Positions 45,949-60,652 are shown, counted from the first letter of the stretch. The stretch: DNA of 64,000 bases from Enterobacterales bacterium (GCA_041556195.1 JBFFIY010000001.1:31877-95876), one strand, 5' to 3'. Program-made: numbers and translations. The notes: generated by a model from the sequence alone, not told the origin.

Positions 45949-45979
45949 ACTCAGAAAAACCATTTAAATTATAGAGTCA

Positions 45980-46007
45980 AAAAAACCGCATTTATTGCGG
46001 TTTTTTT
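45980..46007 (+). terminator. nuo operon terminator (copy 1 of a duplicated hairpin)
   Basis: aaaaaaccgca tttat tgcggttttttt. A near-identical sequence ccgcattcattgcggtttttta occurs at 59312-59335. Confidence 0.75.
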
Positions 46008-46103: not shown

Positions 46104-46376
46104 ATGTGGGAGATTTTAGAAAAGAAAACTGTAAAAAAAACACTTAGAAAAGCACCAAGGACGGTGCTTATCCGCTATGAGGCCTGGAAGAGAATTGTTG
46201 AACTAGAAGGTCCACAAGGGTTAAGGCTCATCAAAGGCTTTCACGATGAGTCACAGCAAGGTAACTGGAAGGGATTTCGGTCATCGCGCCCTGGGTTACA
46301 ATGGCGTGTGATTTATAAGGTAGCTAAGGGTGAATTACAAATATTTGTATTTGAGGTGAATCCGCATGAATATTAA
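46104..46376 (+). CDS. RelE/ParE-superfamily toxin (HigB-like gene order, toxin first)
   Basis: 90 aa. LKGFHDESQQGNWKGFRSSRPGLQWRVIYKV...IFVFEVNPHEY is typical of RelE-fold mRNA interferases. Overlaps the next gene by 11 nt. Confidence 0.7.
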   Translation: MWEILEKKTVKKTLRKAPRTVLIRYEAWKRIVELEGPQGLRLIKGFHDESQQGNWKGFRSSRPGLQWRVIYKVAKGELQIFVFEVNPHEY

Positions 46377-46623
46377 CGATTTTGAACCAGCAAAAGTTAA
46401 CGTTTCTATCACACCTGGCGAAATGTTAAAAACATTACGAGAACTTCAAGAGTTAACTCAAGATCAGTTAGCTCAGGCAACGGGTATTAGCCAGTCAAAC
46501 CTGTCTGGCATGGAAACTAACGCCAAAAGTATTGGTAGGGAACGCGCATTAATATTGGCCAAAGCACTCAAAGTACACCCTGCAGTGATACTTTTTCCTG
46601 ATTATCAGATCGAGGCGGCATGA
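46366..46623 (+). CDS. XRE-family HTH antitoxin (HigA-like)
   Basis: LTQDQLAQATGISQSNLSGMETN helix-turn-helix. 85 aa. Translationally overlapped with the toxin. Confidence 0.75.
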   Translation: MNINDFEPAKVNVSITPGEMLKTLRELQELTQDQLAQATGISQSNLSGMETNAKSIGRERALILAKALKVHPAVILFPDYQIEAA

Positions 46624-47234: not shown

Positions 47235-47840
47235 ATGGAAATAACAGAAGATAAAAAAAATAACATTGAAATTGCTGAATTCATCAAACAAACAAAAAAT
47301 TTAGATTGGTCTAATCAGATTGATTCATTGAATACATTACATGATGAAACAATCAGATTGATTATGTATCAAATCGCTTACTATGATGGAATTCGCCAAA
47401 AGCATAAAAAATTGTCGAAGTGGCTACGGATAGGAATGCTCATTTTTGGCGCTTGTGGAATGATTTCACCCCTCGCTGAAGGAACACAGTTAAATTTTCT
47501 TTCCCCATATGGTTACATATTACTTGTAATTTCTGGCGTTTTTCTAACAGCAGACAAGCTGTTTGGTGGTACTTCAGGTCACATCAGATATTCAATGGTT
47601 TGGTTAAAACTTGAAAAACTTGTTGCATCAAGAAGTCTTAAATGGAATGAATTGATAAAAAACCATCAAAATTCCGCCGAAAAAAACCAGACAGAAAATA
47701 AAATGTTTCAGTTTATTGTTAAGACAATAGAAGAATTATACGCTCTTATTTTAAATGAAACATCCGAATGGGATCATGCCCTTACTTCGGCGATTGAGCA
47801 TGTTGGTAAACAGATAGGTTCTAAACAGAAGGAGATTTAG
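47235..47840 (+). CDS. SLATT-like two-TM effector/accessory protein (RdrD-like position)
   Basis: 201 aa: N-terminal helix, two adjacent TM helices (WLRIGMLIFGACGMISPLA; YGYILLVISGVFLTADKLFG), helical C-terminus. AAGGAA SD. Sits directly upstream of the ATPase/deaminase pair. Confidence 0.55.
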   Translation: MEITEDKKNNIEIAEFIKQTKNLDWSNQIDSLNTLHDETIRLIMYQIAYYDGIRQKHKKLSKWLRIGMLIFGACGMISPLAEGTQLNFLSPYGYILLVISGVFLTADKLFGGTSGHIRYSMVWLKLEKLVASRSLKWNELIKNHQNSAEKNQTENKMFQFIVKTIEELYALILNETSEWDHALTSAIEHVGKQIGSKQKEI

Positions 47841-48096: not shown

Positions 48097-51000
48097 ATGG
48101 GAAATAATGCTAAAGGGCCTAAAATTGTTTTGGATCGCTCGCGTAGATCACGAGCATTTGGAGATGATGAACGATTATGGAAAGATGACCTCAAACGTTT
48201 GGTTGATATGATTAAGACCCATGTGGATAGTCTTGATAGTAAAGTCTCAGAAAAGAAAGATGAAATTACTGATGAAAAACCAACGTTAGCAATTGCCATT
48301 TTCAGCCCAGCAGGTTCCGGTAAGAGTAGTCTATTAAAAACTCTGGTTTACGAAGCTCAGAAAGAATTTAAAAATAAGCAAGAAAATTTAAAAAACGTCT
48401 CTTCACTCGACATTCTTCAACCTGCACGTTTTGGTGATAACGGTCAGTTGGTTTATGCAATGGTAGCAGCAGGTCTTAAAGCTCATAAAGAAAAACGCGG
48501 AGAAGATCTGGATTATGATGTTCTCACACCCCTTCTCAAGAAATACCGAGCTCTTTCAGACGATTTGCGTATCATTAGAGGAGATAAGATCTCTGATAAC
48601 CTGGAGTCGCATGAACTGACGACTGAAGTTGTTTTAAGACACACAAGTGGTCTGAATATCGGAAAAAAAATAGAAGCTTTTGTTAATGCCTTGGCCGATG
48701 ATTTAAATTCTGAAAGTAATAATAACTCAGTGGTTTTGCTACCAGTGGATGATTTGGATCTTGATCCTGAACAATTGATAAAGGGTCTGAGCCAGCTTCA
48801 AGCCTATTTGCGCCATCCACGATTAGTGCCCGTTTTTTGTTTTACTGATGGTTTGGCTGAGGATATTCTTTCAAACCATTATATTCAATCATTAAAGAGC
48901 GCAGATAGAAAACGCCGCAATAATGGACAAATGGAAGCAAGCGAGCAGTTGGCTATTCAATATTTATCCAAATGTTTTCCTGTTCGTACTCGCTTGAGAT
49001 TAGGGGCTGTTCCAGCGTCTTTACAAACGGGGCAACTCAAGAAGAACACTAGCGGGGAAGAGCAAGAACAAGTACTCCATCTATTATTGGCGGCCAGCTT
49101 TTTACTTTTTGGTGTGAGTGATCGTGAAGCTCGACACCCTGTTCGTGCTGTTCTTCGTCCATCAACAGTCCGCCGTCAGTTTCATATCATTGATTCGTTA
49201 GAACAAGCAGGAGTCAAGAAACTTATTTGTCAGCAGATAATAAAGTCATACGATTCAAACAGTCCATCTTATAATGAGCTCAAAAAATCTTTAAAGTTTA
49301 CACGAAAATATCCATGGGTAAATTATTTTGATCGGGCAGTTTGGGGGGTGTTAAATGTTCATCGAGACGTCATTCAGGAATACGGAATGCAAATGGAAGA
49401 TCTTTATAGCTGGTCCCCTTCAGCATTACGCCGTGTTCTTCTTGATGCCCTTCTTGAGCTACCAGATAAAATACAATTTGGACTCTGGCGTCGTTGGCGC
49501 AATATGACAGATAGTCGTCATAATCAGGTGATTTCTCTTTTAGCGGCTAATACTCACAGACCATGGTTAATAGGCGAACGACCCAGCGGAGAAGACTATA
49601 GCCAGCTCATGATTGCTAAACAGGAAAAAAACGGAGAGGATCCTAATAAAATTTATGGGACAATAGATGCTTATTTGGCATTGCTCTGGTTTGTGAATTT
49701 AACCTTGGGTTTTTATTTACCATTGAACCGTTCAGTTTTTCGGGAGTTGAGGGAATCAAAACACAACAAGGAACATTTGGGGGCAACAGGGTGGTCCCTC
49801 CATAACGCAGCCATCCAGGCAATTCAAACAGCAGATGAGGATCGCGAGTTTTTCCCCACAGGTATGCTGTTTCTTGACTCTATATCTTATGCGACGGCAT
49901 TGACAACAACACCCAGAATGAATGCTTGTTATATCTTAGATGGCGTTATTACAGAATGTGCTGAAGAAAAATTATCGCTTAAGAAAGCTAAGATTGAAAT
50001 TTTAAGTAGACGAACAAATGCATTGTTGGGAGAGTATAAAAAAAATCCTGCTGACGCGATAGCTTCTTTTACAAAAAAACTATCCTTGAAGACCAAGAAA
50101 ACAGATAAATGGCTTGAAGGTGTAATAGAAGAAGCACTTGAAGCATATAAAGTGGCTGCAGACTTTGAGATAAAAGGAAAATTAACTGAAGAAGAAGAAA
50201 AAACAGATAAAAAAGTTAATAAGAGTACTTCCTATAAGAAGATTGAAACACTTGTTGAGACTTATTTAAAAAAGCATGAGTACACCAAAGCTTATGGGTT
50301 TATAAAGGAAGAATTAGATGAGGATGGAGATATAACTAGTTCAGAAAAAGAAATAATCAAAAAAGAACTGATAGAACTTAAAACAAGAGTCACTAGCCTC
50401 AAAGCCACTGCAAGAATGGTTCACGATGATCAATTTTTATTAAGGGTATGGACATGTCATGGTTATAATCGAGGGCGGTTTTGGGCTGCGGTTTCATTAT
50501 GGCGAGGACTGGGTTTGATAGGAGAATTAATAGAGTCACATAGGAAGTGGCAATCTGAAAATTCTGATAAAAAAAAGAGCGATAAACAAGACGATTCTAC
50601 AACTGAAGGTTCAGATAAAAAAGCTACACCGGATGAAATAATGGTGAAAAACATCATTGGTATTTTACATTCCCACTCCTTGAAAGGTCTTGTTCCGGGT
50701 AAAGGTTTGAGCGAGCCGTCTAGTCGAAGAGACACTCTGGAGTTGGCATTTCCTCGTTGGAATACGAAAAATCAAAGAGATGCTATTTTGCGCCTTGCTG
50801 CCAGGTTAAAAAATTGGCTGGATAGTGCTTCAGAATTCAAAGTCGCTCCCTTACAACAAAATAGTCAGGAGAGTAAGTTGGACTGGGGTCAATGTTTTAT
50901 CCGCAGATTACAAGGTGAATATATTGCTGGATCGTTATGGCAGTGGTTGGATGTGGAGCATTTCGAATATCAGGGCGATCAATATAATAAAAATAGGCGT

Positions 51001-51906
51001 TCTCAATGGAATGCGGGGGTTGCCTTGACGAGTTGGATCCGAGTGCTTCAACGTTATTTTAAAGGAAACAATGAAATTCGTTGGTTGTTGGATACTTGCC
51101 CACTAACCAGTCCTTTTTTATCACGTTCAGGAAGCGGTTTTCTTCATGCTCAGCTAAGTGAAAAACCCTATATCAAAGTGTTGGGTTACGTTAAATCACT
51201 TATTGAGGATGATGCAAAAAAGGATGCTGCAAAAGAGGATGATGCAGAAAAAGATGATAAAAAAGAACCCGCACTCATAAGAAGTGCCCAACAATTTAGG
51301 AAAATGAATGTTGCCATATTAGAGCTTTGGAAAAAAGAATCTAGCTGGGGCTCACCTACAAATCCTACACGAGAAGAGGCTAATATTTTTGCGAAAGAGA
51401 TCATTAATAATTTGCTTGGTATTGGTAGTAAACCTGGAGCAGAAAAAGAAAGGCTGGAAAAAATTTTTGGTAGTCAGAACTATTTGAAATTTTTTGATGA
51501 AAAAATACAGAATAATGAAAAAAATCTAAAATATTTTATTAGATTGTTAGATATTGCTAAAAATGTAAAGCTTTCACTGAAAAAACACAATAAGAATACC
51601 GAAGAGTACAATGATAGCTTCAATGAGCATTATAAACGGAGTTTATTGGATTCTTTTAATCCAAGAGTTGTGGAATCAGGTATCAAAACAGATTCTGATA
51701 TGGGGGATCAAATAATTGATAGTGCCAATGATGTTCTTGACAGAAAATCTGTCTGTTTTGAACTGGCCAATATGATCCTACAGTATTTGAAGGTATCCAC
51801 ACATGCATCTGCAGCCAGTTTGTTTTATCAGATCCCTCGTGTGCGACGCAGTGATTTCTTTGATGAAGAAAAGAAGAAAGAAGCGGATAGTGAAACACAA
51901 CAATGA
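48097..51906 (+). CDS. rdrA: RdrA-like large P-loop ATPase (RADAR ATPase component), unusually long with K/E/D-rich insertions
   Basis: AAGGAG SD. Walker A FSPAGSGKSS (48304-48327). Walker B VVLLPVDDLD (48730-48759). 1269 aa. ATGA overlap with the downstream deaminase gene. Confidence 0.7.
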   Translation: MGNNAKGPKIVLDRSRRSRAFGDDERLWKDDLKRLVDMIKTHVDSLDSKVSEKKDEITDEKPTLAIAIFSPAGSGKSSLLKTLVYEAQKEFKNKQENLKNVSSLDILQPARFGDNGQLVYAMVAAGLKAHKEKRGEDLDYDVLTPLLKKYRALSDDLRIIRGDKISDNLESHELTTEVVLRHTSGLNIGKKIEAFVNALADDLNSESNNNSVVLLPVDDLDLDPEQLIKGLSQLQAYLRHPRLVPVFCFTDGLAEDILSNHYIQSLKSADRKRRNNGQMEASEQLAIQYLSKCFPVRTRLRLGAVPASLQTGQLKKNTSGEEQEQVLHLLLAASFLLFGVSDREARHPVRAVLRPSTVRRQFHIIDSLEQAGVKKLICQQIIKSYDSNSPSYNELKKSLKFTRKYPWVNYFDRAVWGVLNVHRDVIQEYGMQMEDLYSWSPSALRRVLLDALLELPDKIQFGLWRRWRNMTDSRHNQVISLLAANTHRPWLIGERPSGEDYSQLMIAKQEKNGEDPNKIYGTIDAYLALLWFVNLTLGFYLPLNRSVFRELRESKHNKEHLGATGWSLHNAAIQAIQTADEDREFFPTGMLFLDSISYATALTTTPRMNACYILDGVITECAEEKLSLKKAKIEILSRRTNALLGEYKKNPADAIASFTKKLSLKTKKTDKWLEGVIEEALEAYKVAADFEIKGKLTEEEEKTDKKVNKSTSYKKIETLVETYLKKHEYTKAYGFIKEELDEDGDITSSEKEIIKKELIELKTRVTSLKATARMVHDDQFLLRVWTCHGYNRGRFWAAVSLWRGLGLIGELIESHRKWQSENSDKKKSDKQDDSTTEGSDKKATPDEIMVKNIIGILHSHSLKGLVPGKGLSEPSSRRDTLELAFPRWNTKNQRDAILRLAARLKNWLDSASEFKVAPLQQNSQESKLDWGQCFIRRLQGEYIAGSLWQWLDVEHFEYQGDQYNKNRRSQWNAGVALTSWIRVLQRYFKGNNEIRWLLDTCPLTSPFLSRSGSGFLHAQLSEKPYIKVLGYVKSLIEDDAKKDAAKEDDAEKDDKKEPALIRSAQQFRKMNVAILELWKKESSWGSPTNPTREEANIFAKEIINNLLGIGSKPGAEKERLEKIFGSQNYLKFFDEKIQNNEKNLKYFIRLLDIAKNVKLSLKKHNKNTEEYNDSFNEHYKRSLLDSFNPRVVESGIKTDSDMGDQIIDSANDVLDRKSVCFELANMILQYLKVSTHASAASLFYQIPRVRRSDFFDEEKKKEADSETQQ

Positions 51907-54827
51907 GCCGTTCTGAATTACCCCTCAAAGTTTTGAGTTTATTAGGGCCTATTTTATCCTGGGTGGAAGGGAGTGCAGCAACAGCAGTGCCCGAAGCATG
52001 GAAGGATAAAATTAGCAATGACAATATTAGAAGCCTAGCTTTTCAGTCTGATAATCAGCTCATCAGTTCATTGCAACAACGAGCCTGGTTGTTGCATGAA
52101 TTACCGACTTACTCCCTGGATAATGTGGATGAAATTATGGCTCTGTCTGGTCGGCCTAAGCCTTCTATGCCCGACAGTGCTCTATGGCTGCCGCTAAATA
52201 AGCAACTCAATCCTCCAACTGATTATAATTTGATTAATGTATTTCACCAATTAGCTCAGCGCTATCTTTGTTGGAATGGCAGTGAGGTAGTGATTAAAGG
52301 AAAGCACGTAATAGAGCTGCATGCACTTGGTTTACGTATGCCGCTTTCATTTATGGTGCAACATTTTTATGCTTGCTCGGTTGCCAGTGGAGAAAAAAAA
52401 CTGGAAGATGTTTCTGCATTGATTGAATCCATTAATCTGCTTTCTTCAAATTCAAGATCTATAAGTAATGTTATCAATAAGGGGCTCAGTGAGGGGCATC
52501 TTCATCTCAATTCAATCCATGCAACTGAAAATTCCTGGGCGGATCACCTGCTACTACCGATAGACACTCGGCCTAAACAATTCAGCGTAGTCGATTGGCG
52601 TTTATTGCGTTTTGGACGTGCGGTGGCTCGGACTCTGGCACTGGCAACTACTCTGGTTCGTGCTAATATTGAGATTTCTGCACAGGATGGTATAGCAATC
52701 CATAATGCTTTGGACAACATGTATTGTGCGAAAGATTTATCTTCAATGGAGGAATTTGAGCGACAACATCAAATATATTTTGATAATATCGTTCAAGATC
52801 CAAAGTTTTTTGGTGACTTAAGCTCAGTTGATAATTTGCCTGATGGGGAGTTTTTTTCAGACGGTTTTTCCAGAAGAAAGGTTAAAGGTCAGCGTTTCGG
52901 GTTATTTTATTGGCTGGATCCCTGGCGTCAAACAAACTGGCCAGTTTTTAATGATAACTCGAAGTACCCTAAGCTAAATAATTCCAATAAACGTAGGCGC
53001 TTTATTTCTAATTTGCATTTAGTTAGCCATTTGGCACTTTTACAAACCCCGCCAATAACGCATACCTGTGACAACTCTCATGATCAACATGATACAAAAA
53101 ACCATGCTACAGGCCGTTTTTTACACCGTTCGTTGTTCAGATATCTGATTGCGCAAACTCATCACTGGCAACAGGCTGTACAACAGGGACGAACCACTGG
53201 TTTACGTAATTTCAAAGTCTATTTTGATAGTAATCAACGAAACCCAATAGAGCCTACTGTCAGAGAAAATGCCGAGGCAGTCTTTAAGCAGATCAGCCAT
53301 TGGCAAGGTCTTGATGTGCTGGAAGGCCGAGTTAGCCCTCCCAGGATTCCAGCCAAAGATCTGCTTCCCTGGATCCAGGAATTTGTCAGAAAAATCAAAA
53401 ATGGGAATAAAATAAAAAAATTTGGCTTAGTGATTCATTTTATCAAAGACGAGGAACCCAAAAGTCATCGAGACGATTCATCAATACGGCTGGCTAGGTA
53501 TGGTTTATTACGTAAGAGATATCGGAGTGAAGCATTCCATCTTTATCATATTTTAAAAAAATCTTCTGTAGAAAATCCATTTATTGTTGGTATAGATGCT
53601 GCCAATCTTGAACTTGCAACACCTCCCGAAGTGTTTGCTCCTATATTTCGTTTTTTACGTGATGAGCCCATAGAAATACTTCGGCCTCAACGATTTGATA
53701 GTAATTTTGGAGATAACAAAAAGCTTCATTTGGCGATTAAACATTTGGTGCGACACAGGCATCTTGGTATGACTTATCACGTTGGTGAAGAATTCAGACA
53801 TATTTTATCAGGACTCAGAGCAATCGATGAAGTTTTAGAGTTCCTTAATCCCCGATCTGGTGACAGGATTGGGCATGGGATAGCTTTAGGATTAGAGCCA
53901 AAAGTATGGTTAGAGCAAACAGGATATCAGGCACTGATGCCTAAGCAGGAGTGGCTCGATACCCTCGTCTGGATTTTCCATTATCTGGGTTCGGGTGACG
54001 AACAGGTTAAAAGCTTAAATATAGAATATGAAATTGAGCGCCTTGCACGGGAGATTTATCAGCATGGAGGCGAGGATTCAAAAAACTCCATTAACCCTCA
54101 TTTATTATGGAATGCCTGGCTTCTTCGGCAACTTGATCCTGGATCTATTTACCTGGACGAAAAACTCAATAGTTTCCAATTTCAACCTTTAACTGGAGTA
54201 GATGCCGAAGCCTGGCGGTGGAACCGTATTACAAACAAAATAGTTAATGAAATTAATGAAAAAGTAGGAAATAATCCACCTTCTAAGCTTTTGAGCCAGT
54301 ACTGGTGTGATGCTAAAGTACGAGCCGCAGGTAACAAATTATGTCTGATTGATATGGAAGATGAGTCTGAGAATTGGCTTGAAATATGCCGAAAAGCACA
54401 AAAAATAATGCAAAATCGAGTGATTAAGCGTCAAATGGTTGTAGAAGTAAATCCATCATCTAACTTTAGTATCGGATCGATGAGTCGTTTTACAGAACAT
54501 CCTATTTTTAATATGGTATTTGATCACGAGGGAAATTGGCAACGCCGTTTGCGAGTTACTATCAACACAGATAACCCTGGAACTGCCAATACAAGTCTAT
54601 CCCATGAATATTATTTGCTGGGAGAGGCTCTCATGGGCATGGGACGACCTGAAAGCGAGGTCCTTGAATGGCTTGAATGGTTACGTCAATGTGGAGAAGA
54701 GAGCTCGTTTGTTCGCCACTTGCCAGAAATTGAGCACTGGGCTATGAAGACTGTTGTTGCTGAAATCAGAAAAACATTTCCAGGAAAGGATGGTATCTTT
54801 AAATGGTATAAATCAGAAAATAAATAA
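51903..54827 (+). CDS. rdrB: RdrB-like divergent adenosine deaminase (RADAR effector)
   Basis: All ADA-fold motifs in the canonical order: GHLHLN (HxH, 52497-52505), YHVGEE (53778-53789), DRIGHG (53862-53879), VNPSSN (54447-54464), NTDNPG (54564-54581). 974 aa. Confidence 0.75.
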   Translation: MSRSELPLKVLSLLGPILSWVEGSAATAVPEAWKDKISNDNIRSLAFQSDNQLISSLQQRAWLLHELPTYSLDNVDEIMALSGRPKPSMPDSALWLPLNKQLNPPTDYNLINVFHQLAQRYLCWNGSEVVIKGKHVIELHALGLRMPLSFMVQHFYACSVASGEKKLEDVSALIESINLLSSNSRSISNVINKGLSEGHLHLNSIHATENSWADHLLLPIDTRPKQFSVVDWRLLRFGRAVARTLALATTLVRANIEISAQDGIAIHNALDNMYCAKDLSSMEEFERQHQIYFDNIVQDPKFFGDLSSVDNLPDGEFFSDGFSRRKVKGQRFGLFYWLDPWRQTNWPVFNDNSKYPKLNNSNKRRRFISNLHLVSHLALLQTPPITHTCDNSHDQHDTKNHATGRFLHRSLFRYLIAQTHHWQQAVQQGRTTGLRNFKVYFDSNQRNPIEPTVRENAEAVFKQISHWQGLDVLEGRVSPPRIPAKDLLPWIQEFVRKIKNGNKIKKFGLVIHFIKDEEPKSHRDDSSIRLARYGLLRKRYRSEAFHLYHILKKSSVENPFIVGIDAANLELATPPEVFAPIFRFLRDEPIEILRPQRFDSNFGDNKKLHLAIKHLVRHRHLGMTYHVGEEFRHILSGLRAIDEVLEFLNPRSGDRIGHGIALGLEPKVWLEQTGYQALMPKQEWLDTLVWIFHYLGSGDEQVKSLNIEYEIERLAREIYQHGGEDSKNSINPHLLWNAWLLRQLDPGSIYLDEKLNSFQFQPLTGVDAEAWRWNRITNKIVNEINEKVGNNPPSKLLSQYWCDAKVRAAGNKLCLIDMEDESENWLEICRKAQKIMQNRVIKRQMVVEVNPSSNFSIGSMSRFTEHPIFNMVFDHEGNWQRRLRVTINTDNPGTANTSLSHEYYLLGEALMGMGRPESEVLEWLEWLRQCGEESSFVRHLPEIEHWAMKTVVAEIRKTFPGKDGIFKWYKSENK

Positions 54828-55199: not shown

Positions 55200-55334
55200 G
55201 CTAATAAAAAATCCAATTCAAGTCCGGATTCAACTATAACAACACCAGCGATGCGCATTGGATTGGCGGACCAAGTTTTTGACGGAAGTGGTATATTAAA
55301 CTTCAACCTATATAAGAAAATTTTAAGTGTTTAA
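54994..55334 (+). pseudogene. Frameshifted, 3'-truncated fragment of the HAMP-domain gene (paralogous to 59429-60652)
   Basis: ATG 54994 gives MNPDLTKIGRFDCSFIIVMIRDFSWYY*. A T5 run versus T6 in the intact copy shifts the frame. The homologous frame continues as track ORF 55029-55334, then diverges after ..VDVVNIM. Confidence 0.8.
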
Positions 55335-55644
55335 TAAAAATATAAGAGGGATTCAAATGAATACTGGGGATTATAAAAAATACATCAAGGGAATCTTTGA
55401 TAATGTCTTTGTTTATAGCTTAATTGACACATTTTTCACCATACTTTATGCCAATTCATAATTGGGGGGGTAATATTTCTGTATACATTTGCAATTGGTG
55501 ATAGCTCGTTAATACGGGAAAAGCACATCTTAGTATCAGTTCAAATTTTTCTTGGTATTTATTTTTTTGTGATTTCAATTACTTCTCTTAACGCTTATAT
55601 AAAGTTTAAAAGGAACTTTGGAACCTCAAAGCAGGAATGAACCA

Positions 55645-58221
55645 ATGTTTGAACATATAAAGCAGGCACTGGAAAGAGAGGCTACTAGAGAAAGTCAGCA
55701 GGTAATCGACTCGATGAAAAACAGTGACTATCTCGCGATTTCCCATCACATTTCTTCTTTAATAATCGCTATTGTAGCTTTTTGTTTGATCGTGACAGCT
55801 GTGAGCATTTCAAGCCAAAAGGGTAGTGGCTCAGTCATCGGTTATGGATTGCTGCTAGTTGCTGCATTATTAGTTCTATTTCATGAAGCTAATAAGCGAA
55901 GAGTTAGTTATATAAACAAATATGCTTATCTAATTATCAGGATTAAGTGTTTTTGGATAAGACATTGGTATGCTGATTATTTAGCTAAGTATTTTTGGGT
56001 TAGTTTCGCTTTACTAATAATTATATTGGGAGCATTGCTACTGACACATGTTACAGGACAGAACGGGTGGGTTTTGCCAGAAGTTTATCAAGGTGAAAAA
56101 TTTTCTTCGTCAGTAAATATGGTCATAACTACCGCATCTGGGCTGCTCGCGGCTCAAATAGCTCTGTTTAGTTTCATGATGCAGCAAGTGCTAAGTAAAT
56201 ATTCTGGAGTTGTCGCTCAAACCGTTGCTAGCCATAGAGTATTTAAATTGCTAGCTCTTTTTCCTGCCTTAGGGTTATTAATTCCATTTGTGCTGCATAA
56301 CTTTGGTGCTCCTAAGTCGATTGAAAGTCAAATACTGCCAGTCATTGGTTTCATGTTGTTCTTAGGCCTTTTATTAACAGTCATGGTAGCCAAATCAGGA
56401 TTGAGTGAAAATCTTACCATTAGATACTTTGGTGTAGCCTCGTCAAATAAGCTTGTTAAAGCAATACCAACTCCTCTTAAAATGAATTCAAATTTTGCAA
56501 AGCGTTTGTGGAGGACTTTACATTATTTAGGATTAGATTTTAGAAATAAAGACCGTTTTCAAATTATCAATGTACCAGCAAACGGATCAAATATAACTAT
56601 GGAGTCGTTAAGTGCTGCATTAGGTGTAGCCAATAAGGCAGTAGTAGAAGGACAGCATGATGTCTTCGTTTCCAGTTTGATATCAATAGAAATAATTATG
56701 AAGGCCTATGCTGTTAGGCGAAAATTATATTGCAGCAGTGAAGATGAAGTGTTTATCTACCTGAATTATCAATTTGCCGCGCTAATAGAGTTGACGGCAA
56801 AAATTCCTAATCAATATTTAATATCCAATTTAACTAGTTCAATTGGCAAAACTGCAAAATTAACGTATTGCGTTGGTAACATACCAGAAGAGTTAGTTGA
56901 GGAGCACCATCATGAGAATGCTAATAACTTTGCAACTGCATTATGGATGGGGTTACTAGTCCAAAGCTTTGAACATACGCACACTCTGACCAGGAGCACA
57001 GCTGCACACGCCTCATTAAGACAAATGTCCGAAATAGCAAGCACATCTATTGCTAACAAAGATTCAGACTTAATAACCATTACTTACCTACCTTCAGTAA
57101 AGAAAGTATTTGCACAGTGCGTTGTAAGAATAGCGGACGCATATCATAAAGATCTAGCTGGGCAATGCCTAATAAATTTAATGTCGAATTTGATGAATAT
57201 TACGTTTTATCGAGATTCACTAAGGGGAACACATCAAGACTCTTTTGAAGAGGTATTAAACCATATCACTGAACTATCAAACCTTTATTTAACAGCCGAC
57301 TCAATGGGATCAATAACTCTAAATGACCCATTAAATATAGTCCTTAGCAAAACAGCCGAAAACCAATGTTGCATTCAAGAAGTATTTTTCATGATTGCTA
57401 ATAAAAAAATCAGCAATACTCACTCCTATCGAGTTGCCGTATCCGATATGGAAAAAATTGTTGATGAACTAGCGACTATGGGATGGTTTGCCGTAAATGC
57501 TAATGTATATACATCGGCATATTATTTAGAGGCTCTTTTTGAAATCCTTTATATAGTAACTAGAGGACTACCTAGTAAATTCGAAGAGTTTGATCAACTT
57601 GAAGTGCAGCAAAGAGCCCCGTTCGGGCTACCAGAAAATTCAATATCTACAGAACAAAGGCTGATTGAACATATATGCAATAAGTTAAATGAATTGGCTA
57701 CACTTTTCTATCAGTCACAACGAATGACTATAGATTGGCAACAGTCAGTGTATTCATCAATTGGTATATTGATATTGCGCTATGCCGAATGCCAAGAAGA
57801 ATTTATAAAAAGTAAAATTTCAGAAACAGTTCACATCATATATTCGCTTGTAAGATCTGACATTGAGTCCGGAAATCGGACTCAATACGATAGTGAAAAA
57901 TACCTTCAATTAGCAGCAGCCTGGATGAAATATTATGAAATAGATAATGACCTGACTGTCGAGATTGAAAATTTTCTAGCTAATAACAGAGGATACTATA
58001 GAGGTTATGGCGGCTCGCGGGAAAGGTATGGCTTATTCGGTTACCCAACGTTACAGCACTATGATTTTTACCTATATCCCCTAAAAAACATACGCCATCC
58101 ACAGATAATGTCTGAAGAGCATTGGCAAAATTTTAGAGATTTCGGTAATCGATTAGTAAACGATGATGTTCTTTTGCCGTTTGCTAATAACCTTAGGGAA
58201 ATGGCCGAAAATTTAGCTTAA
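55645..58221 (+). CDS. Large polytopic membrane protein of unknown function (about 6 N-terminal TM helices + ~570-aa helical soluble domain)
   Basis: ATG 55645 (AGGA upstream) is preferred to the track's TTG at 55618. TM helices include LIIAIVAFCLIVTAVSI, VIGYGLLLVAALLVLF, MVITTASGLLAAQIALFSFMM and ILPVIGFMLFLGLLLTVMVA. No catalytic motif recognised. Confidence 0.6.
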   Translation: MFEHIKQALEREATRESQQVIDSMKNSDYLAISHHISSLIIAIVAFCLIVTAVSISSQKGSGSVIGYGLLLVAALLVLFHEANKRRVSYINKYAYLIIRIKCFWIRHWYADYLAKYFWVSFALLIIILGALLLTHVTGQNGWVLPEVYQGEKFSSSVNMVITTASGLLAAQIALFSFMMQQVLSKYSGVVAQTVASHRVFKLLALFPALGLLIPFVLHNFGAPKSIESQILPVIGFMLFLGLLLTVMVAKSGLSENLTIRYFGVASSNKLVKAIPTPLKMNSNFAKRLWRTLHYLGLDFRNKDRFQIINVPANGSNITMESLSAALGVANKAVVEGQHDVFVSSLISIEIIMKAYAVRRKLYCSSEDEVFIYLNYQFAALIELTAKIPNQYLISNLTSSIGKTAKLTYCVGNIPEELVEEHHHENANNFATALWMGLLVQSFEHTHTLTRSTAAHASLRQMSEIASTSIANKDSDLITITYLPSVKKVFAQCVVRIADAYHKDLAGQCLINLMSNLMNITFYRDSLRGTHQDSFEEVLNHITELSNLYLTADSMGSITLNDPLNIVLSKTAENQCCIQEVFFMIANKKISNTHSYRVAVSDMEKIVDELATMGWFAVNANVYTSAYYLEALFEILYIVTRGLPSKFEEFDQLEVQQRAPFGLPENSISTEQRLIEHICNKLNELATLFYQSQRMTIDWQQSVYSSIGILILRYAECQEEFIKSKISETVHIIYSLVRSDIESGNRTQYDSEKYLQLAAAWMKYYEIDNDLTVEIENFLANNRGYYRGYGGSRERYGLFGYPTLQHYDFYLYPLKNIRHPQIMSEEHWQNFRDFGNRLVNDDVLLPFANNLREMAENLA

Positions 58222-58276
58222 CCTACTAAAAAATGAATACTAAATTATACGGCTAGCGAAAGAAGAGTGGATTTTT

Positions 58277-59167
58277 ATGGAATTAGCGACGATTAACAAA
58301 GAATTGGAAATGATCAATAGTGAACTTTCTGAAAGAGACGTACCTATTCATGCGCGTCCAATCCATGCAATTATGGAATTTGGTAAAAAACACAAATTAT
58401 CTCTCCCTATTGTTTCTACTGGAAGATCTTCTGCTGATAATAATTACCCAATTGAAAATGAATATATTACTGATGCCATTCATGCTTGGTATGAAAACAT
58501 GTATTCAGATTCATTAAAAATTGCGCCTGATATTGGAAAAACGCTTGTTCTTGTAAATGGCGACCCAATGGCTATGAGACTTCCATTGATCTATGGACAG
58601 TGTGAGATACAGTGGGATATTATTAAAACGGGGATTACAGGTGCAAAAGGATTTAATAAGGGGCCCAATATTCTAAATGTGATAGATGTTATTGATGGGC
58701 TTACTATTACAATGGCTAAAAATATTAGCCATGATGCAGCAAGAAACATTGTGCATTGGTTTCTTCAATCCTACGAAACACATAACTTTATTACCAATTT
58801 AGACCAGGCATTAGTCAAACAGGCTCTAACAGACTTAAAAGACGCTGTTTCGCATATAACTAGCCAACTTGCTAATTATGGGCAAGCTCGCTGGTCAACC
58901 CTTCAAGCCTGTGAAAAGTTGATGAAAGCCTACATGGTAGATAAAGAAATTCCTTATAGAAACGGTCACTATCTGGAAAAAGTTGCAAAAAATGCTGAAA
59001 TTGATTCTAAAGAAATGCTGTCTTTGTTGCCAGATATTCAATGTCCTGCAAGTGTTAGATATGGAGAAGTAAAACCGACCAAATTAGAGGCAATTAAGGC
59101 ATACCAATCCACAATGGTTTTCTTATCTTACCTGGTAAAAATGTGGCCGGTTAAAGGTTGTACGTAG
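58277..59167 (+). CDS. Unknown protein with a HEPN-like C-terminal domain
   Basis: The C-terminal ~70 aa follow the classic HEPN layout: DLKDA..., QACEKLMKAYM (58904-), GHYLEKVA (58964-), VRYGE (59054-59068). The N-terminal ~190 aa are unrecognised. Confidence 0.5.
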   Translation: MELATINKELEMINSELSERDVPIHARPIHAIMEFGKKHKLSLPIVSTGRSSADNNYPIENEYITDAIHAWYENMYSDSLKIAPDIGKTLVLVNGDPMAMRLPLIYGQCEIQWDIIKTGITGAKGFNKGPNILNVIDVIDGLTITMAKNISHDAARNIVHWFLQSYETHNFITNLDQALVKQALTDLKDAVSHITSQLANYGQARWSTLQACEKLMKAYMVDKEIPYRNGHYLEKVAKNAEIDSKEMLSLLPDIQCPASVRYGEVKPTKLEAIKAYQSTMVFLSYLVKMWPVKGCT

Positions 59168-59310
59168 TAAGTGTTTGTATTTATATAACTAATTGAATGA
59201 ATTTTGATTTGAAATAGTGCTACTTCAAGTAAATATTCGCAATAAAATCAATAAGTTTATAAATTGAAAAAGCCGACGCATAATGCATCAGCTCCAAGTT
59301 CAGTAAATAG

Positions 59311-59336
59311 CCCGCATTCATTGCGGTTTTTTATGT
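59311..59336 (+). terminator. Terminator hairpin, duplicate of the nuoN terminator
   Basis: cccgca ttcat tgcgg + T6. 59312-59339 matches 45986-46013 with 2 mismatches and 1 indel by eye. Confidence 0.7.
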
Positions 59337-59347
59337 CCAAAAAACCA

Positions 59348-59635
59348 ACAAGCAACATTTAATGAGTTGATACGTCAGTAACATGTTTCGTAGTAATTAA
59401 CACCATTTTATGCTTATAAGGAAAGAACATGGCGCCAGATTTTACAAAAATAGGACGTTTTGACCGTTCATTTATAGTAGTTATGATCAGGGATTTTTTC
59501 CTGGTCTTATTGGCTGTCGTATTGTTTGAACTGGGCCTGCGATTTGTCATAGTTCTCTATGAATTTAACTATCCTCAGCAAAAAGAAACTGCACAGGTGG
59601 CCGAAGACCTGGCTGTTGATGTAGTTAACATTATG
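59348..59635 (+). repeat. Direct repeat, copy 2 (native promoter and 5' end of the HAMP gene)
   Basis: Partner of 54912-55199. Confidence 0.9.
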
Positions 59636-60652
59636 CGTAATAAGGGCGGACCGGTAGCCTCTAGTACATTTTACCCAATATTGAAAAAAAATCACGAAGC
59701 TATAGGTTATGAAGTTTCCATAGAACCGTCGGACGAAACCGTATCATCCATAGAAAAAATATTTAGTTTTACCCCAAGAGGTATTCCAGCCGAATGGTCT
59801 ATAGGCAAATTTCATGAAGAAACCGTTGAAATACGTGCGGATAAATTTTGTTTATCTTGTCACATTGATGCTAAATTAGGTGCTGTTTTAGGAAAAATAA
59901 AAGTTAGAAGTTACCTAAGCCATCATCTTGAGAGTTGGTGGGCCGAAGTGGGTTTAACCGCTGTATTAGGTTTGGGTAAAATATTATTTCATACCACCAT
60001 TTTATTCTTTTTATTAAAAGTTAGAATGGAACCCATGTTATCTTTACGTTCAGTGGTGGCATCCCTGGCAAAAGCAGGGGCAGATCTACATCATCGTGCT
60101 ACATTAAGATCTGAAGATGAGTTTTCCGAACTTGCCCGTGACTTAAATCACTTCCTTGATCGTTTGTGTTTAATATTGGAAGATGTTGGTAACGTATTAG
60201 AAAAAATTACAGTGTTAAATTTACGATTAACTCAGGTTAACTCTCAAATAGAAAATAAATTTGAAGTTATTCAGGGGTTATCTCAACAAGCAAACAAAGT
60301 GATGTTTGAAGGAAACACGCGTTTACCTCTGTTATCGTTTGAGTGGAAAAATTCAATGCAATTGGCGTTAACTATGTTAAAAAATTCAATAGATGATCCT
60401 GAAAAACTTGTAGAATTTGATATTAAAATGGAACAAATCTGGCAGCAGTTTGACGCAACAGCAGCTCAACTGCAAAATTTGAATCAGAGCCACAATAAAG
60501 CGAGTGAAGGGTTAACTCATATGAATTCAGAGTTACATGATTTTGAGCATTACCTGACAGAAATGAGTCATCTTGAAGAAAAAATGGAAAATATTTCTGA
60601 GCAGGGACAAAAATTAATCAATAGGTTAACTGGAAAATCAATTGAGTCATAA
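59429..60652 (+). CDS. Membrane protein with a CxxCH-containing periplasmic loop, HAMP domain and C-terminal coiled coil
   Basis: TM1 FFLVLLAVVLFELGLRFVIVL. FCLSCHIDA (CxxCH). TM2 LTAVLGLGKILFHTTILFFLL. HAMP-like MEPMLSLRSVV...EDEFSELARDLNHFLDRL. Confidence 0.65.
   Translation: MAPDFTKIGRFDRSFIVVMIRDFFLVLLAVVLFELGLRFVIVLYEFNYPQQKETAQVAEDLAVDVVNIMRNKGGPVASSTFYPILKKNHEAIGYEVSIEPSDETVSSIEKIFSFTPRGIPAEWSIGKFHEETVEIRADKFCLSCHIDAKLGAVLGKIKVRSYLSHHLESWWAEVGLTAVLGLGKILFHTTILFFLLKVRMEPMLSLRSVVASLAKAGADLHHRATLRSEDEFSELARDLNHFLDRLCLILEDVGNVLEKITVLNLRLTQVNSQIENKFEVIQGLSQQANKVMFEGNTRLPLLSFEWKNSMQLALTMLKNSIDDPEKLVEFDIKMEQIWQQFDATAAQLQNLNQSHNKASEGLTHMNSELHDFEHYLTEMSHLEEKMENISEQGQKLINRLTGKSIES

Follow-up and report, generated by a model that had tools for sequence, protein, structure and literature searches.

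A rare pair of membrane proteins and a solo HEPN protein in a probable mosaic insert of an Enterobacterales defence island

The polytopic inner-membrane proteins of Kiwa (KwaA/KwaB) and Zorya (ZorAB), together with the SLATT-like transmembrane (TM) effectors, occur in defence islands and are thought to sense or act at the membrane. Among HEPN proteins, the toxins of the type II/VII HepT/MntA toxin-antitoxin (TA) systems (SO_3166/SO_3165, 5yep, 7bxo) are DUF86 proteins with a canonical Rx4H motif and are always encoded next to an MNT (nucleotidyltransferase) antitoxin, and the members of the HEPN-T clade (PF05168; AF_0298/2hsb, ST0689/1wol, TM0613/1o3u) share a four-helix bundle. Here we analyse a ~4.1-kb insert in a 64,000-nt stretch of DNA from an Enterobacterales bacterium (GCA_041556195.1, JBFFIY010000001.1:31877-95876; 'the window', whose positions are counted from its first nucleotide). 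The insert holds two intact co-oriented genes, encoding an 858-aa membrane protein (the large protein) and a 296-aa HEPN protein, and both open reading frames (ORFs) are present where a preliminary description of this DNA had placed them. That description viewed the membrane protein and the HEPN protein as a single sensor/effector system. The data presented here argue against this view, and the insert is probably a mosaic of two unrelated mobile cargo pieces lodged in a variable hot spot between nuoN and a HAMP gene.

The first piece comprises the large gene and a small gene for a protein with two TM helices, and shares with Kiwa and Zorya the organization of a two-gene operon with a membrane component. 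No PADLOC or fold match connects it to Kiwa, Zorya or SLATT proteins, however, and its combination of six TM helices, a 600-aa solenoid and a 2-TM partner is unlike all of them. The second piece, the HEPN gene, resembles HepT in specifying a small HEPN protein on mobile DNA, with weak structural similarity (TM-score ~0.5), but its product lacks all three of the HepT features listed above.

The two genes can be taken as real, since each has full-length homologues elsewhere, at 20-73% identity for the large protein and 23-49% for the HEPN protein. Both families are very rare. A word-indexed search of 5.8 billion proteins returned 8 clusters for the large protein and 7 for the HEPN protein, and an exhaustive profile search of 1.84 billion representatives gave 87 large-protein matches, ~37 of them full-length, down to 20% identity. 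A third homology search, with a 35-sequence profile, added only P0016; a scan of a genome collection added one locus (L011), and a metagenome scan with the HEPN sub-alignment recovered a known HEPN locus (L009) and nothing else. Neither family was found in scans of viral contigs or matched in phage genomes, and the large protein had no match on plasmids. The diverse alignments were too variable for pattern scans.

Eleven other large-gene loci were examined: the chromosome of the cultured bacterium Salinimonas iocasae (L001, CP039852), which carries an intact version of the small and large genes at 3023452-3026305; a Logan contig (L002); JGI contigs (L003-7); an NCBI assembly contig (L008); a Gammaproteobacteria metagenome-assembled genome (MAG; L011); the JGI and Logan contigs closest to the window (L012/13); an ENA contig (L014); the complete genome CP121321 (L015, large protein 36% identical); the P0018 contig (25% identical); a Kiritimatiellaceae MAG (L017); and a further JGI contig (L018). 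All 11 have a small gene (72-125 aa) immediately upstream of the large gene on the same strand, with spacing that ranges from overlap to ~50 nt. Homology among the small proteins was detected by BLAST or hidden Markov model (HMM) in 9 of the 11, by BLAST among L001, L002 and L003, and by the small-protein HMM in L015 (E=1.4e-16) and in L017, where the small gene ranked first among 799 ORFs (E=3e-5). The small gene of L018 is an uncalled 89-aa ORF that was matched by position and architecture only. A HEPN gene adjoins the large gene in none of these 11 loci, and the large gene was found near a HEPN homologue in none of four independent contexts (L009, L010, Roseobacter-group plasmids and a Pseudomonas plasmid). 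This co-occurrence test speaks against the membrane protein and the HEPN protein forming one system.

Comparison with the closest relative, L012/L013, leads in the same direction. The blastn homology (~73%) spans 55234-58203, a stretch that takes in the small and large genes and, ahead of them, a leader with a micro-ORF; the match ends at the end of the large gene and restarts, beyond the HEPN gene, as an exact 24 nt (59291-59314). The HEPN gene thus occupies a ~1.1-kb segment that is absent from the L012 version. The window retains a counterpart of the small gene, although it was overlooked earlier: position 55357, at which the preliminary description began its cassette, is the ATG of this third, frameshifted gene. 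Adjacency within one island is no evidence of a system, and the relevant partner here is an easily overlooked 93-codon gene.

The small and large membrane proteins

The small proteins of the different loci are N-in/C-in proteins with two TM helices and end in a basic tail, which reads N.YIKFKR.F in close relatives. In the window the stop codon of the small gene lies 4 nt before the ATG of the large gene, as it does in L001, L003 and L012, and the reading frame is broken by a 2-nt insertion (AA, 55453-55454) that converts ...TILYA-FIIGG... to ...TILYANS*, with the stop at 55459-55461. The in-frame stop precedes a G7 run, which consequently cannot restore the frame. As no slippery site or homopolymer explains the insertion, the small gene is disrupted in this genome or has been mis-assembled. 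Programmed frameshifting was considered and rejected, the slippery heptamer being absent.

The small proteins resemble class II holins and pinholins in size (70-125 aa), in their two TM helices, in topology and in the basic tail. They differ from them in that no holin family of Pfam or PHROGs matched the 10 small proteins searched, and in the lack of an endolysin or phage context at the small-gene loci; of the two marks of a holin, a family match and a phage lysis-cassette context, the small protein thus displays neither. P0101 (934 aa), which is only very distantly related to the large protein, starts with ~150 additional residues that contain a basic stretch and two further predicted TM helices; it may be a fusion of small and large proteins, the sequence similarity being not significant.

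The start of the large protein is placed at ATG 55645 because all homologues begin MFEHIKQ or MFDNI; an alternative TTG at 55618 would give 867 aa. Hydrophobic segments are found at residues 36-54, 61-79, ~115-138, 157-175, 199-217 and 230-248, and the remainder of the protein is all-alpha in the AlphaFold2 (AF2) model, in agreement with the six or so N-terminal TM helices and long helical domain of the preliminary description. Across 37 full-length relatives, the mean number of Lys and Arg residues in the segments predicted to lie inside was 5.1 for the N-terminus, 6.9 for loop 2-3, 2.5 for loop 4-5 and 9.1 for the region after TM6, against 0.6, 1.3 and 0.5 for the outside loops 1-2, 3-4 and 5-6, respectively. 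This clean positive-inside rule indicates that the N-terminus is inside and that the ~600-aa C-terminal domain is cytoplasmic. The cytoplasmic loop between TM4 and TM5, MMQQVLSKYSGVVAQTVASH, is conserved. In the AF2 model, built from an 8-sequence alignment (mean predicted local distance difference test score, pLDDT, 66.9), residues ~320-780 form a confident all-alpha solenoid (pLDDT 70-94).

Only a few positions, R359, D367, G401, L756 and Y800-P801, are invariant in the large-protein family, and Q171, F177, S187 and H197 of the TM4-TM5 loop, together with Y355, Y362, R450, E633 and W760, are near-invariant. The window protein retains every family-conserved residue. These positions suggest a conserved binding surface rather than a recognisable catalytic motif. 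The large protein had no match in Pfam, NCBIfam, PADLOC, PHROGs or PDB sequences, Foldseek against the PDB gave only designed toroids and TPR, HEAT or importin-like repeats (TM-score at most 0.24), and a BFVD fold search returned no match. PADLOC-DB v2 contained 0 families for either the large or the HEPN protein at E<=0.1, and a literature search by characteristic peptide strings found no paper. Family searches revealed no nuclease, NTPase or other typical defence domain in the small and large proteins, and no transporter signature. The pair cannot be assigned to any catalogued family or defence system, and the large protein remains unclassified, as first described. The tentative resemblance to DUF2254 (PF10011) suggested at that time, which concerned a loop motif and extends to N-terminal TM helices followed by a soluble domain, was not sustained: no HMM match was obtained for the query, for 10 distant relatives or for 35 diverse family members at E<=10.

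Known defence genes lie near the large gene in the window, L001, L002, L008 and L018. RADAR stands beside the insert in the window; in L002 a GmrSD/HEC-06 enzyme is adjacent, together with ArdA, an integrase and a resolvase; L018 has a methyltransferase and a DrmC-like PLD nuclease, and L008 an EcoRII-C fragment. Integrases or insertion sequence elements occur in L001, L003, L011, L012 and L015. The preliminary description had placed the cassette in a defence island, which holds for the window, a defence/mobile island; the setting of the other loci is mixed, and the remaining contigs are too short to judge. The neighbourhoods of L015 and L017 are not of the defence type, so the association with defence genes is suggestive rather than established. 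As judged from the sequence comparisons, the pair is very rare and extremely patchy and appears to have been horizontally transferred across phyla, from Gammaproteobacteria to Kiritimatiellota. No dedicated recombinase was found to travel with the module, and the recombinases encoded downstream in L001 and in L011 are unrelated.

Two of these loci merit description. A complete Shango system (SngA/B/C, PADLOC E=1e-90 to 7e-262) is located at 16641-22400 of L001, ~4 kb downstream of the module, with a recombinase-like gene, HTH genes and an AlpA-like gene in between. The island of L011 (9034-13756) is a minimal insertion. Its ~4.7 kb separate tex from a telA/DUF4178/DUF350 cluster and hold, besides the small and large genes, two short ORFs (94 and 111 aa) and a tyrosine integrase gene in convergent orientation.

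The HEPN protein

Residues 178-287 of the HEPN protein match PF05168 by a thin margin (22.9 bits against a cut-off of 22, E=9.9e-5), a match obtained independently for 6 of the 7 family members. Among the Pfam, NCBIfam, PADLOC and PHROGs families this was the sole match for either the large or the HEPN protein. A profile of the family finds ST0689 (1wol) and TM0613 (1o3u) in the PDB. In the AF2 model (pLDDT 83.4) residues ~152-289 form a four-helix bundle (helices 152-173, 178-195, 201-222 and 269-289) that superimposes on 1wol (TM-score 0.71), 2hsb (0.63), 2q00 (0.63) and the sacsin HEPN domain 3o10 (0.59). The HEPN-like C-terminus recognised in the preliminary description is thus confirmed at the levels of both family and fold.

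The protein also carries the HEPN-T signature, with Q.xEKxxK in helix 2 (conserved as Q..EK..K, with E213, K214 and K217), a conserved histidine, H232, before helix 3, and R263-Y264 before helix 4; all of these residues are kept in the window. Two of the three residues singled out in the preliminary description, H232 of GHYL and R263 of VRYGE, are conserved in the family, while the arginine of YRNGH is not. The canonical Rx4-6H motif is absent, as R263 is conserved but no histidine follows 5-7 residues downstream in any family member. In AF0298-like members of PF05168 the motif histidine is likewise missing while the basic residue persists, and another conserved histidine, nearer the N-terminus, provides a possible alternative active site (PMC3710099). 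The window protein, with its upstream His232 and basic residue, shows this AF0298-type pattern. To our knowledge the AF0298-like HEPN clade is poorly understood and its non-canonical active site has never been put to the test.

The window protein departs from the described HEPN-T proteins in its barely threshold Pfam score, in having no MNT partner and in an added N-terminal domain of ~150 residues. No nucleotidyltransferase ORF or Pfam match was found next to the HEPN gene in the window, where it is flanked by the large gene and a terminator, nor in L009, L010 or L019-L021. The N-terminal domain (~1-150) is alpha/beta, with three helices and a small sheet, is family-specific and has no detectable relative. 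The HEPN protein combines membership of a known clade with a new architecture.

The contexts of the HEPN homologues are varied. In L009 (= L016) the gene lies between a phage-sheath fragment and a LysR gene. On a Pseudomonas plasmid the homologue (23% identity) follows a tyrosine recombinase, and 31 Roseobacter-group plasmids, whose records represent essentially one lineage, carry a homologue with 33% identity. In the latter the gene is part of a co-oriented cluster in which genes for a large ParB-like protein, H-NS and SSB precede it and genes for DUF932, two RadC proteins, DUF6878, an orphan antitoxin and Xre/RES follow; this cluster was located at 1177-14881 of L019/L021 (Pseudosulfitobacter/Sulfitobacter plasmids). 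SSBs, TA genes, anti-defence genes and uncharacterised families are over-represented in the leading regions of conjugative elements (PMC11541004), and the ParB/SSB/RadC/antitoxin set around the plasmid HEPN gene is reminiscent of such a region. A second tblastn match was present on 30 of the 32 HEPN-bearing plasmid records. In L010 (607-1478) the homologue is split into ORFs of 216 and 89 aa, an apparent frameshift or pseudogene, and the second piece carries the Pfam HEPN match.

Function of the two pieces and competing explanations

Under the mosaic reading, the first piece (~55234-58221 plus the right-end hairpin and 24-mer) would be the conserved operon of the small 2-TM and 858-aa proteins. 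Its product could be a membrane-embedded sensor/effector in which the cytoplasmic solenoid binds a ligand derived from an invader or from stress; binding would trigger the TM domain, together with the holin-shaped 2-TM partner, to permeabilise the membrane or put it out of action in some other way, and the damage would result in abortive infection or in the exclusion of incoming phage or mobile DNA. It is plausible but unproven that the pair is a membrane-based defence or exclusion module. The 2-nt insertion in the small gene means that the module is probably disabled or altered in this genome. The combination of a broken small gene and an intact large gene, a single observation, fits a small protein that is a harmful effector or accessory rather than an antitoxin. 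The second piece (58277-59167) would be a stand-alone HEPN-T protein that moves independently on plasmids and in other islands. It is most likely a self-contained RNA-binding or RNA-cleaving toxin or regulator that operates through the non-canonical His232/Arg263 pair, with the N-terminal domain as a putative regulatory or sensing part.

Several points weigh against this interpretation. The observations concern anatomy, synteny, topology, fold and borders, and every functional statement is extrapolated from them. The large-gene loci are a small sample; recognised defence genes occur in only about half of those with long flanks, and in L015 and L017 the surroundings of the large gene are ordinary metabolism or housekeeping. 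No enzymatic or pore motif can be recognised in the large protein, whose TM region was modelled at low confidence; the analogy between the small partner and holins is one of architecture only, and the small-gene frameshift could be an assembly error. In addition, the 55-nt gap between the large gene and the HEPN gene contains no terminator, so that the two are probably co-transcribed in the window, which leaves room for a local functional link.

Such a link is the basis of the explanation that comes closest to the original proposal, in which the large protein of this lineage acts as the sensor and cooperates with the HEPN protein, an RNase effector recruited in place of the broken small partner. 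It would account for two co-oriented genes 55 nt apart within the same bracket, for the disruption of the usual partner and for the choice of a HEPN domain, a common defence effector (PMC3710099). We nevertheless consider it improbable, given that the pairing recurs at 0/11 large-gene loci and in 0/4 HEPN contexts, that the match to the nearest relative stops precisely at the stop codon of the large gene and that the HEPN homologues are maintained as solo genes. The whole cassette might alternatively be decaying, non-functional cargo left by successive hot-spot recombinations, a history suggested by the frameshifted small gene, the left HAMP pseudo-fragment, the loss of any recombinase from the island and the splitting of the HEPN homologue in L010. 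The 858-aa and 296-aa ORFs, however, have stayed intact in an AT-rich genome with all family-conserved residues in place and a plausible ribosome-binding site before each, and this explanation is accordingly an unlikely one.

The other alternatives concern each piece separately. The small and large proteins may fulfil a mobile-borne membrane function that is not immune, such as entry or surface exclusion, immunity to a membrane-acting toxin, or an accessory role in envelope stress or transport. This possibility, which we judge to be less likely than not, draws on the non-defence neighbourhoods of L015 and L017, on the fact that the pair's consistent neighbours are integrases, transposases and ArdA, not any single defence system, and on the absence of typical defence domains such as nucleases and NTPases. 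It is countered by the RADAR, Shango, GmrSD, methyltransferase/PLD and EcoRII remnant genes adjacent in five loci, by a patchy, cross-phylum, transfer-like distribution that is typical of defence cargo, and by the lack of a transporter signature. For the HEPN protein the main rival is that it serves conjugative elements in establishment or anti-defence and is not a defence toxin. The Roseobacter cluster on 31 plasmids, with its ParB-like, SSB, RadC and antitoxin genes, has the composition for which leading regions are noted (PMC11541004), and the missing Rx4-6H motif would be in keeping with a non-toxin role; PLSDB, by contrast, types the Roseobacter plasmids as non-mobilizable, their records come from essentially one lineage, and the conserved His/Arg pair of the alternative HEPN site fits a catalytic role. 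On balance this rival seems rather unlikely.

A bolder form of the defence interpretation can be offered tentatively. The small 2-TM protein and the 6-TM/solenoid protein may constitute a new, phylum-spanning membrane immune or exclusion system, in which the solenoid senses an invader component and gates the holin-like partner, causing the membrane to collapse; the window would then hold a naturally inactivated copy beside RADAR. If the pair is a defence or exclusion module, it adds a system built from two protein families without annotated relatives and a fresh example of immunity that acts at the inner membrane. Being compact (~3.1 kb) and available intact in the cultured S. iocasae, the pair is open to direct testing. 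With the HEPN protein, the AF0298-like clade gains a new domain architecture, and the plasmid context of that protein raises a possible anti-defence role.

Borders, features and neighbouring genes

The elements follow one another in the order nuoN terminator, RADAR island, HAMP pseudo-copy, cassette, second terminator and HAMP gene (Table 1). The bracketing of the cassette by a 5' fragment of the HAMP gene and a second nuoN terminator, both noted in the preliminary description, was confirmed as DNA copies of ~87% and 86% identity, respectively. The left HAMP copy contains a 1-nt deletion in a T-run. The last 10 nt of the right-end 24-mer form the left half of the second terminator copy, which places the right host junction inside that hairpin. 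Preceding the 24-mer is a strong hairpin that would act as an intrinsic terminator for minus-strand transcription; L012 has a hairpin at the same position with a different stem sequence (fold z-scores of -4.4 and -4.9 in the two loci). The two-hairpin/24-mer right end may be a recombination site. Within the window no inverted or direct copy of the 24-mer was found that could serve as a left end or att site, no integrase remnant or other recombinase was found in the island, and an Rfam scan of the island gave one sub-threshold chance match only. The GC content of the window is ~36-42%.

Table 1. Features of the insert and its surroundings (window coordinates)
Feature	Coordinates	Strand	Basis and remarks
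nuoN terminator	45979-46006		
HigB/YafQ-like toxin and HTH_3 antitoxin-like pair	46104-46623		overlapping; 90 aa (weak Pfam matches only) and 85 aa
SLATT_2 gene	47235-47840		just upstream of the RADAR pair
RADAR pair (RdrA/RdrB)	48097-54827		highly divergent
15-nt tandem repeats in RdrA gene	51205-51264		
Left bracket, decayed duplicate of HAMP gene upstream region and first ~70 codons	54902-55211	+	DNA comparison; ~87% identity to right bracket; pseudo-fragment
Chimeric ORF, 101 codons	55029-55334	+	decayed HAMP copy reading through into foreign sequence
Micro-ORF/leader, 27 codons	55251-55334	+	MRIGLADQVFDGSGILNFNLYKKILSV; just upstream of small gene
Small 2-TM partner gene, ~93 aa when repaired	55357-55640	+	split over two frames
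Large membrane protein gene, 858 aa	55645-58221	+	ORF and homologues; intact
Solo HEPN-T protein gene, 296 aa	58277-59167	+	Pfam, model; absent from closest large-gene locus
Right end shared with L012	59269-59314	.	hairpin 59269-59295, then 24-mer GCTCCAAGTTCAGTAAATAGCCCG at 59291-59314
Second copy of nuoN terminator	59305-59332	+	86% identical to nuoN terminator; left half overlaps 24-mer
Right bracket, intact copy of HAMP gene upstream region and 5' end	59338-59646	+	
HAMP gene	59429-60652		

The 24-mer is identical in L012 and L013 and corresponds to 3318-3341 of L012. Two hairpins flank it in both the window (59269-59332) and L012 (3290-3360), and in the window the second of these is the duplicated nuoN terminator. 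The differing stems of the first hairpin may reflect compensatory change or independent terminators. At the left side, the chimeric ORF takes its first codons from the N-terminal TM part of the decayed HAMP copy and continues into the micro-ORF, which is common only to the closest loci, L012/L013 (59% amino acid identity), and is not conserved in other loci.

Upstream of the insert are the HigB-like/HTH pair, which are the first genes of the island and directly follow the nuoN terminator, the SLATT_2 gene and the RADAR pair. The RADAR-like module of the preliminary description is thus a divergent RdrA/RdrB pair accompanied by SLATT_2, with NCBIfam scores of 64 bits for RdrA (cut-off 600) and 199.6 for RdrB (cut-off 800). 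RdrA is unusually long (1269 aa) and contains a K/E/D-rich insert that is partly encoded by the 15-nt tandem repeats.

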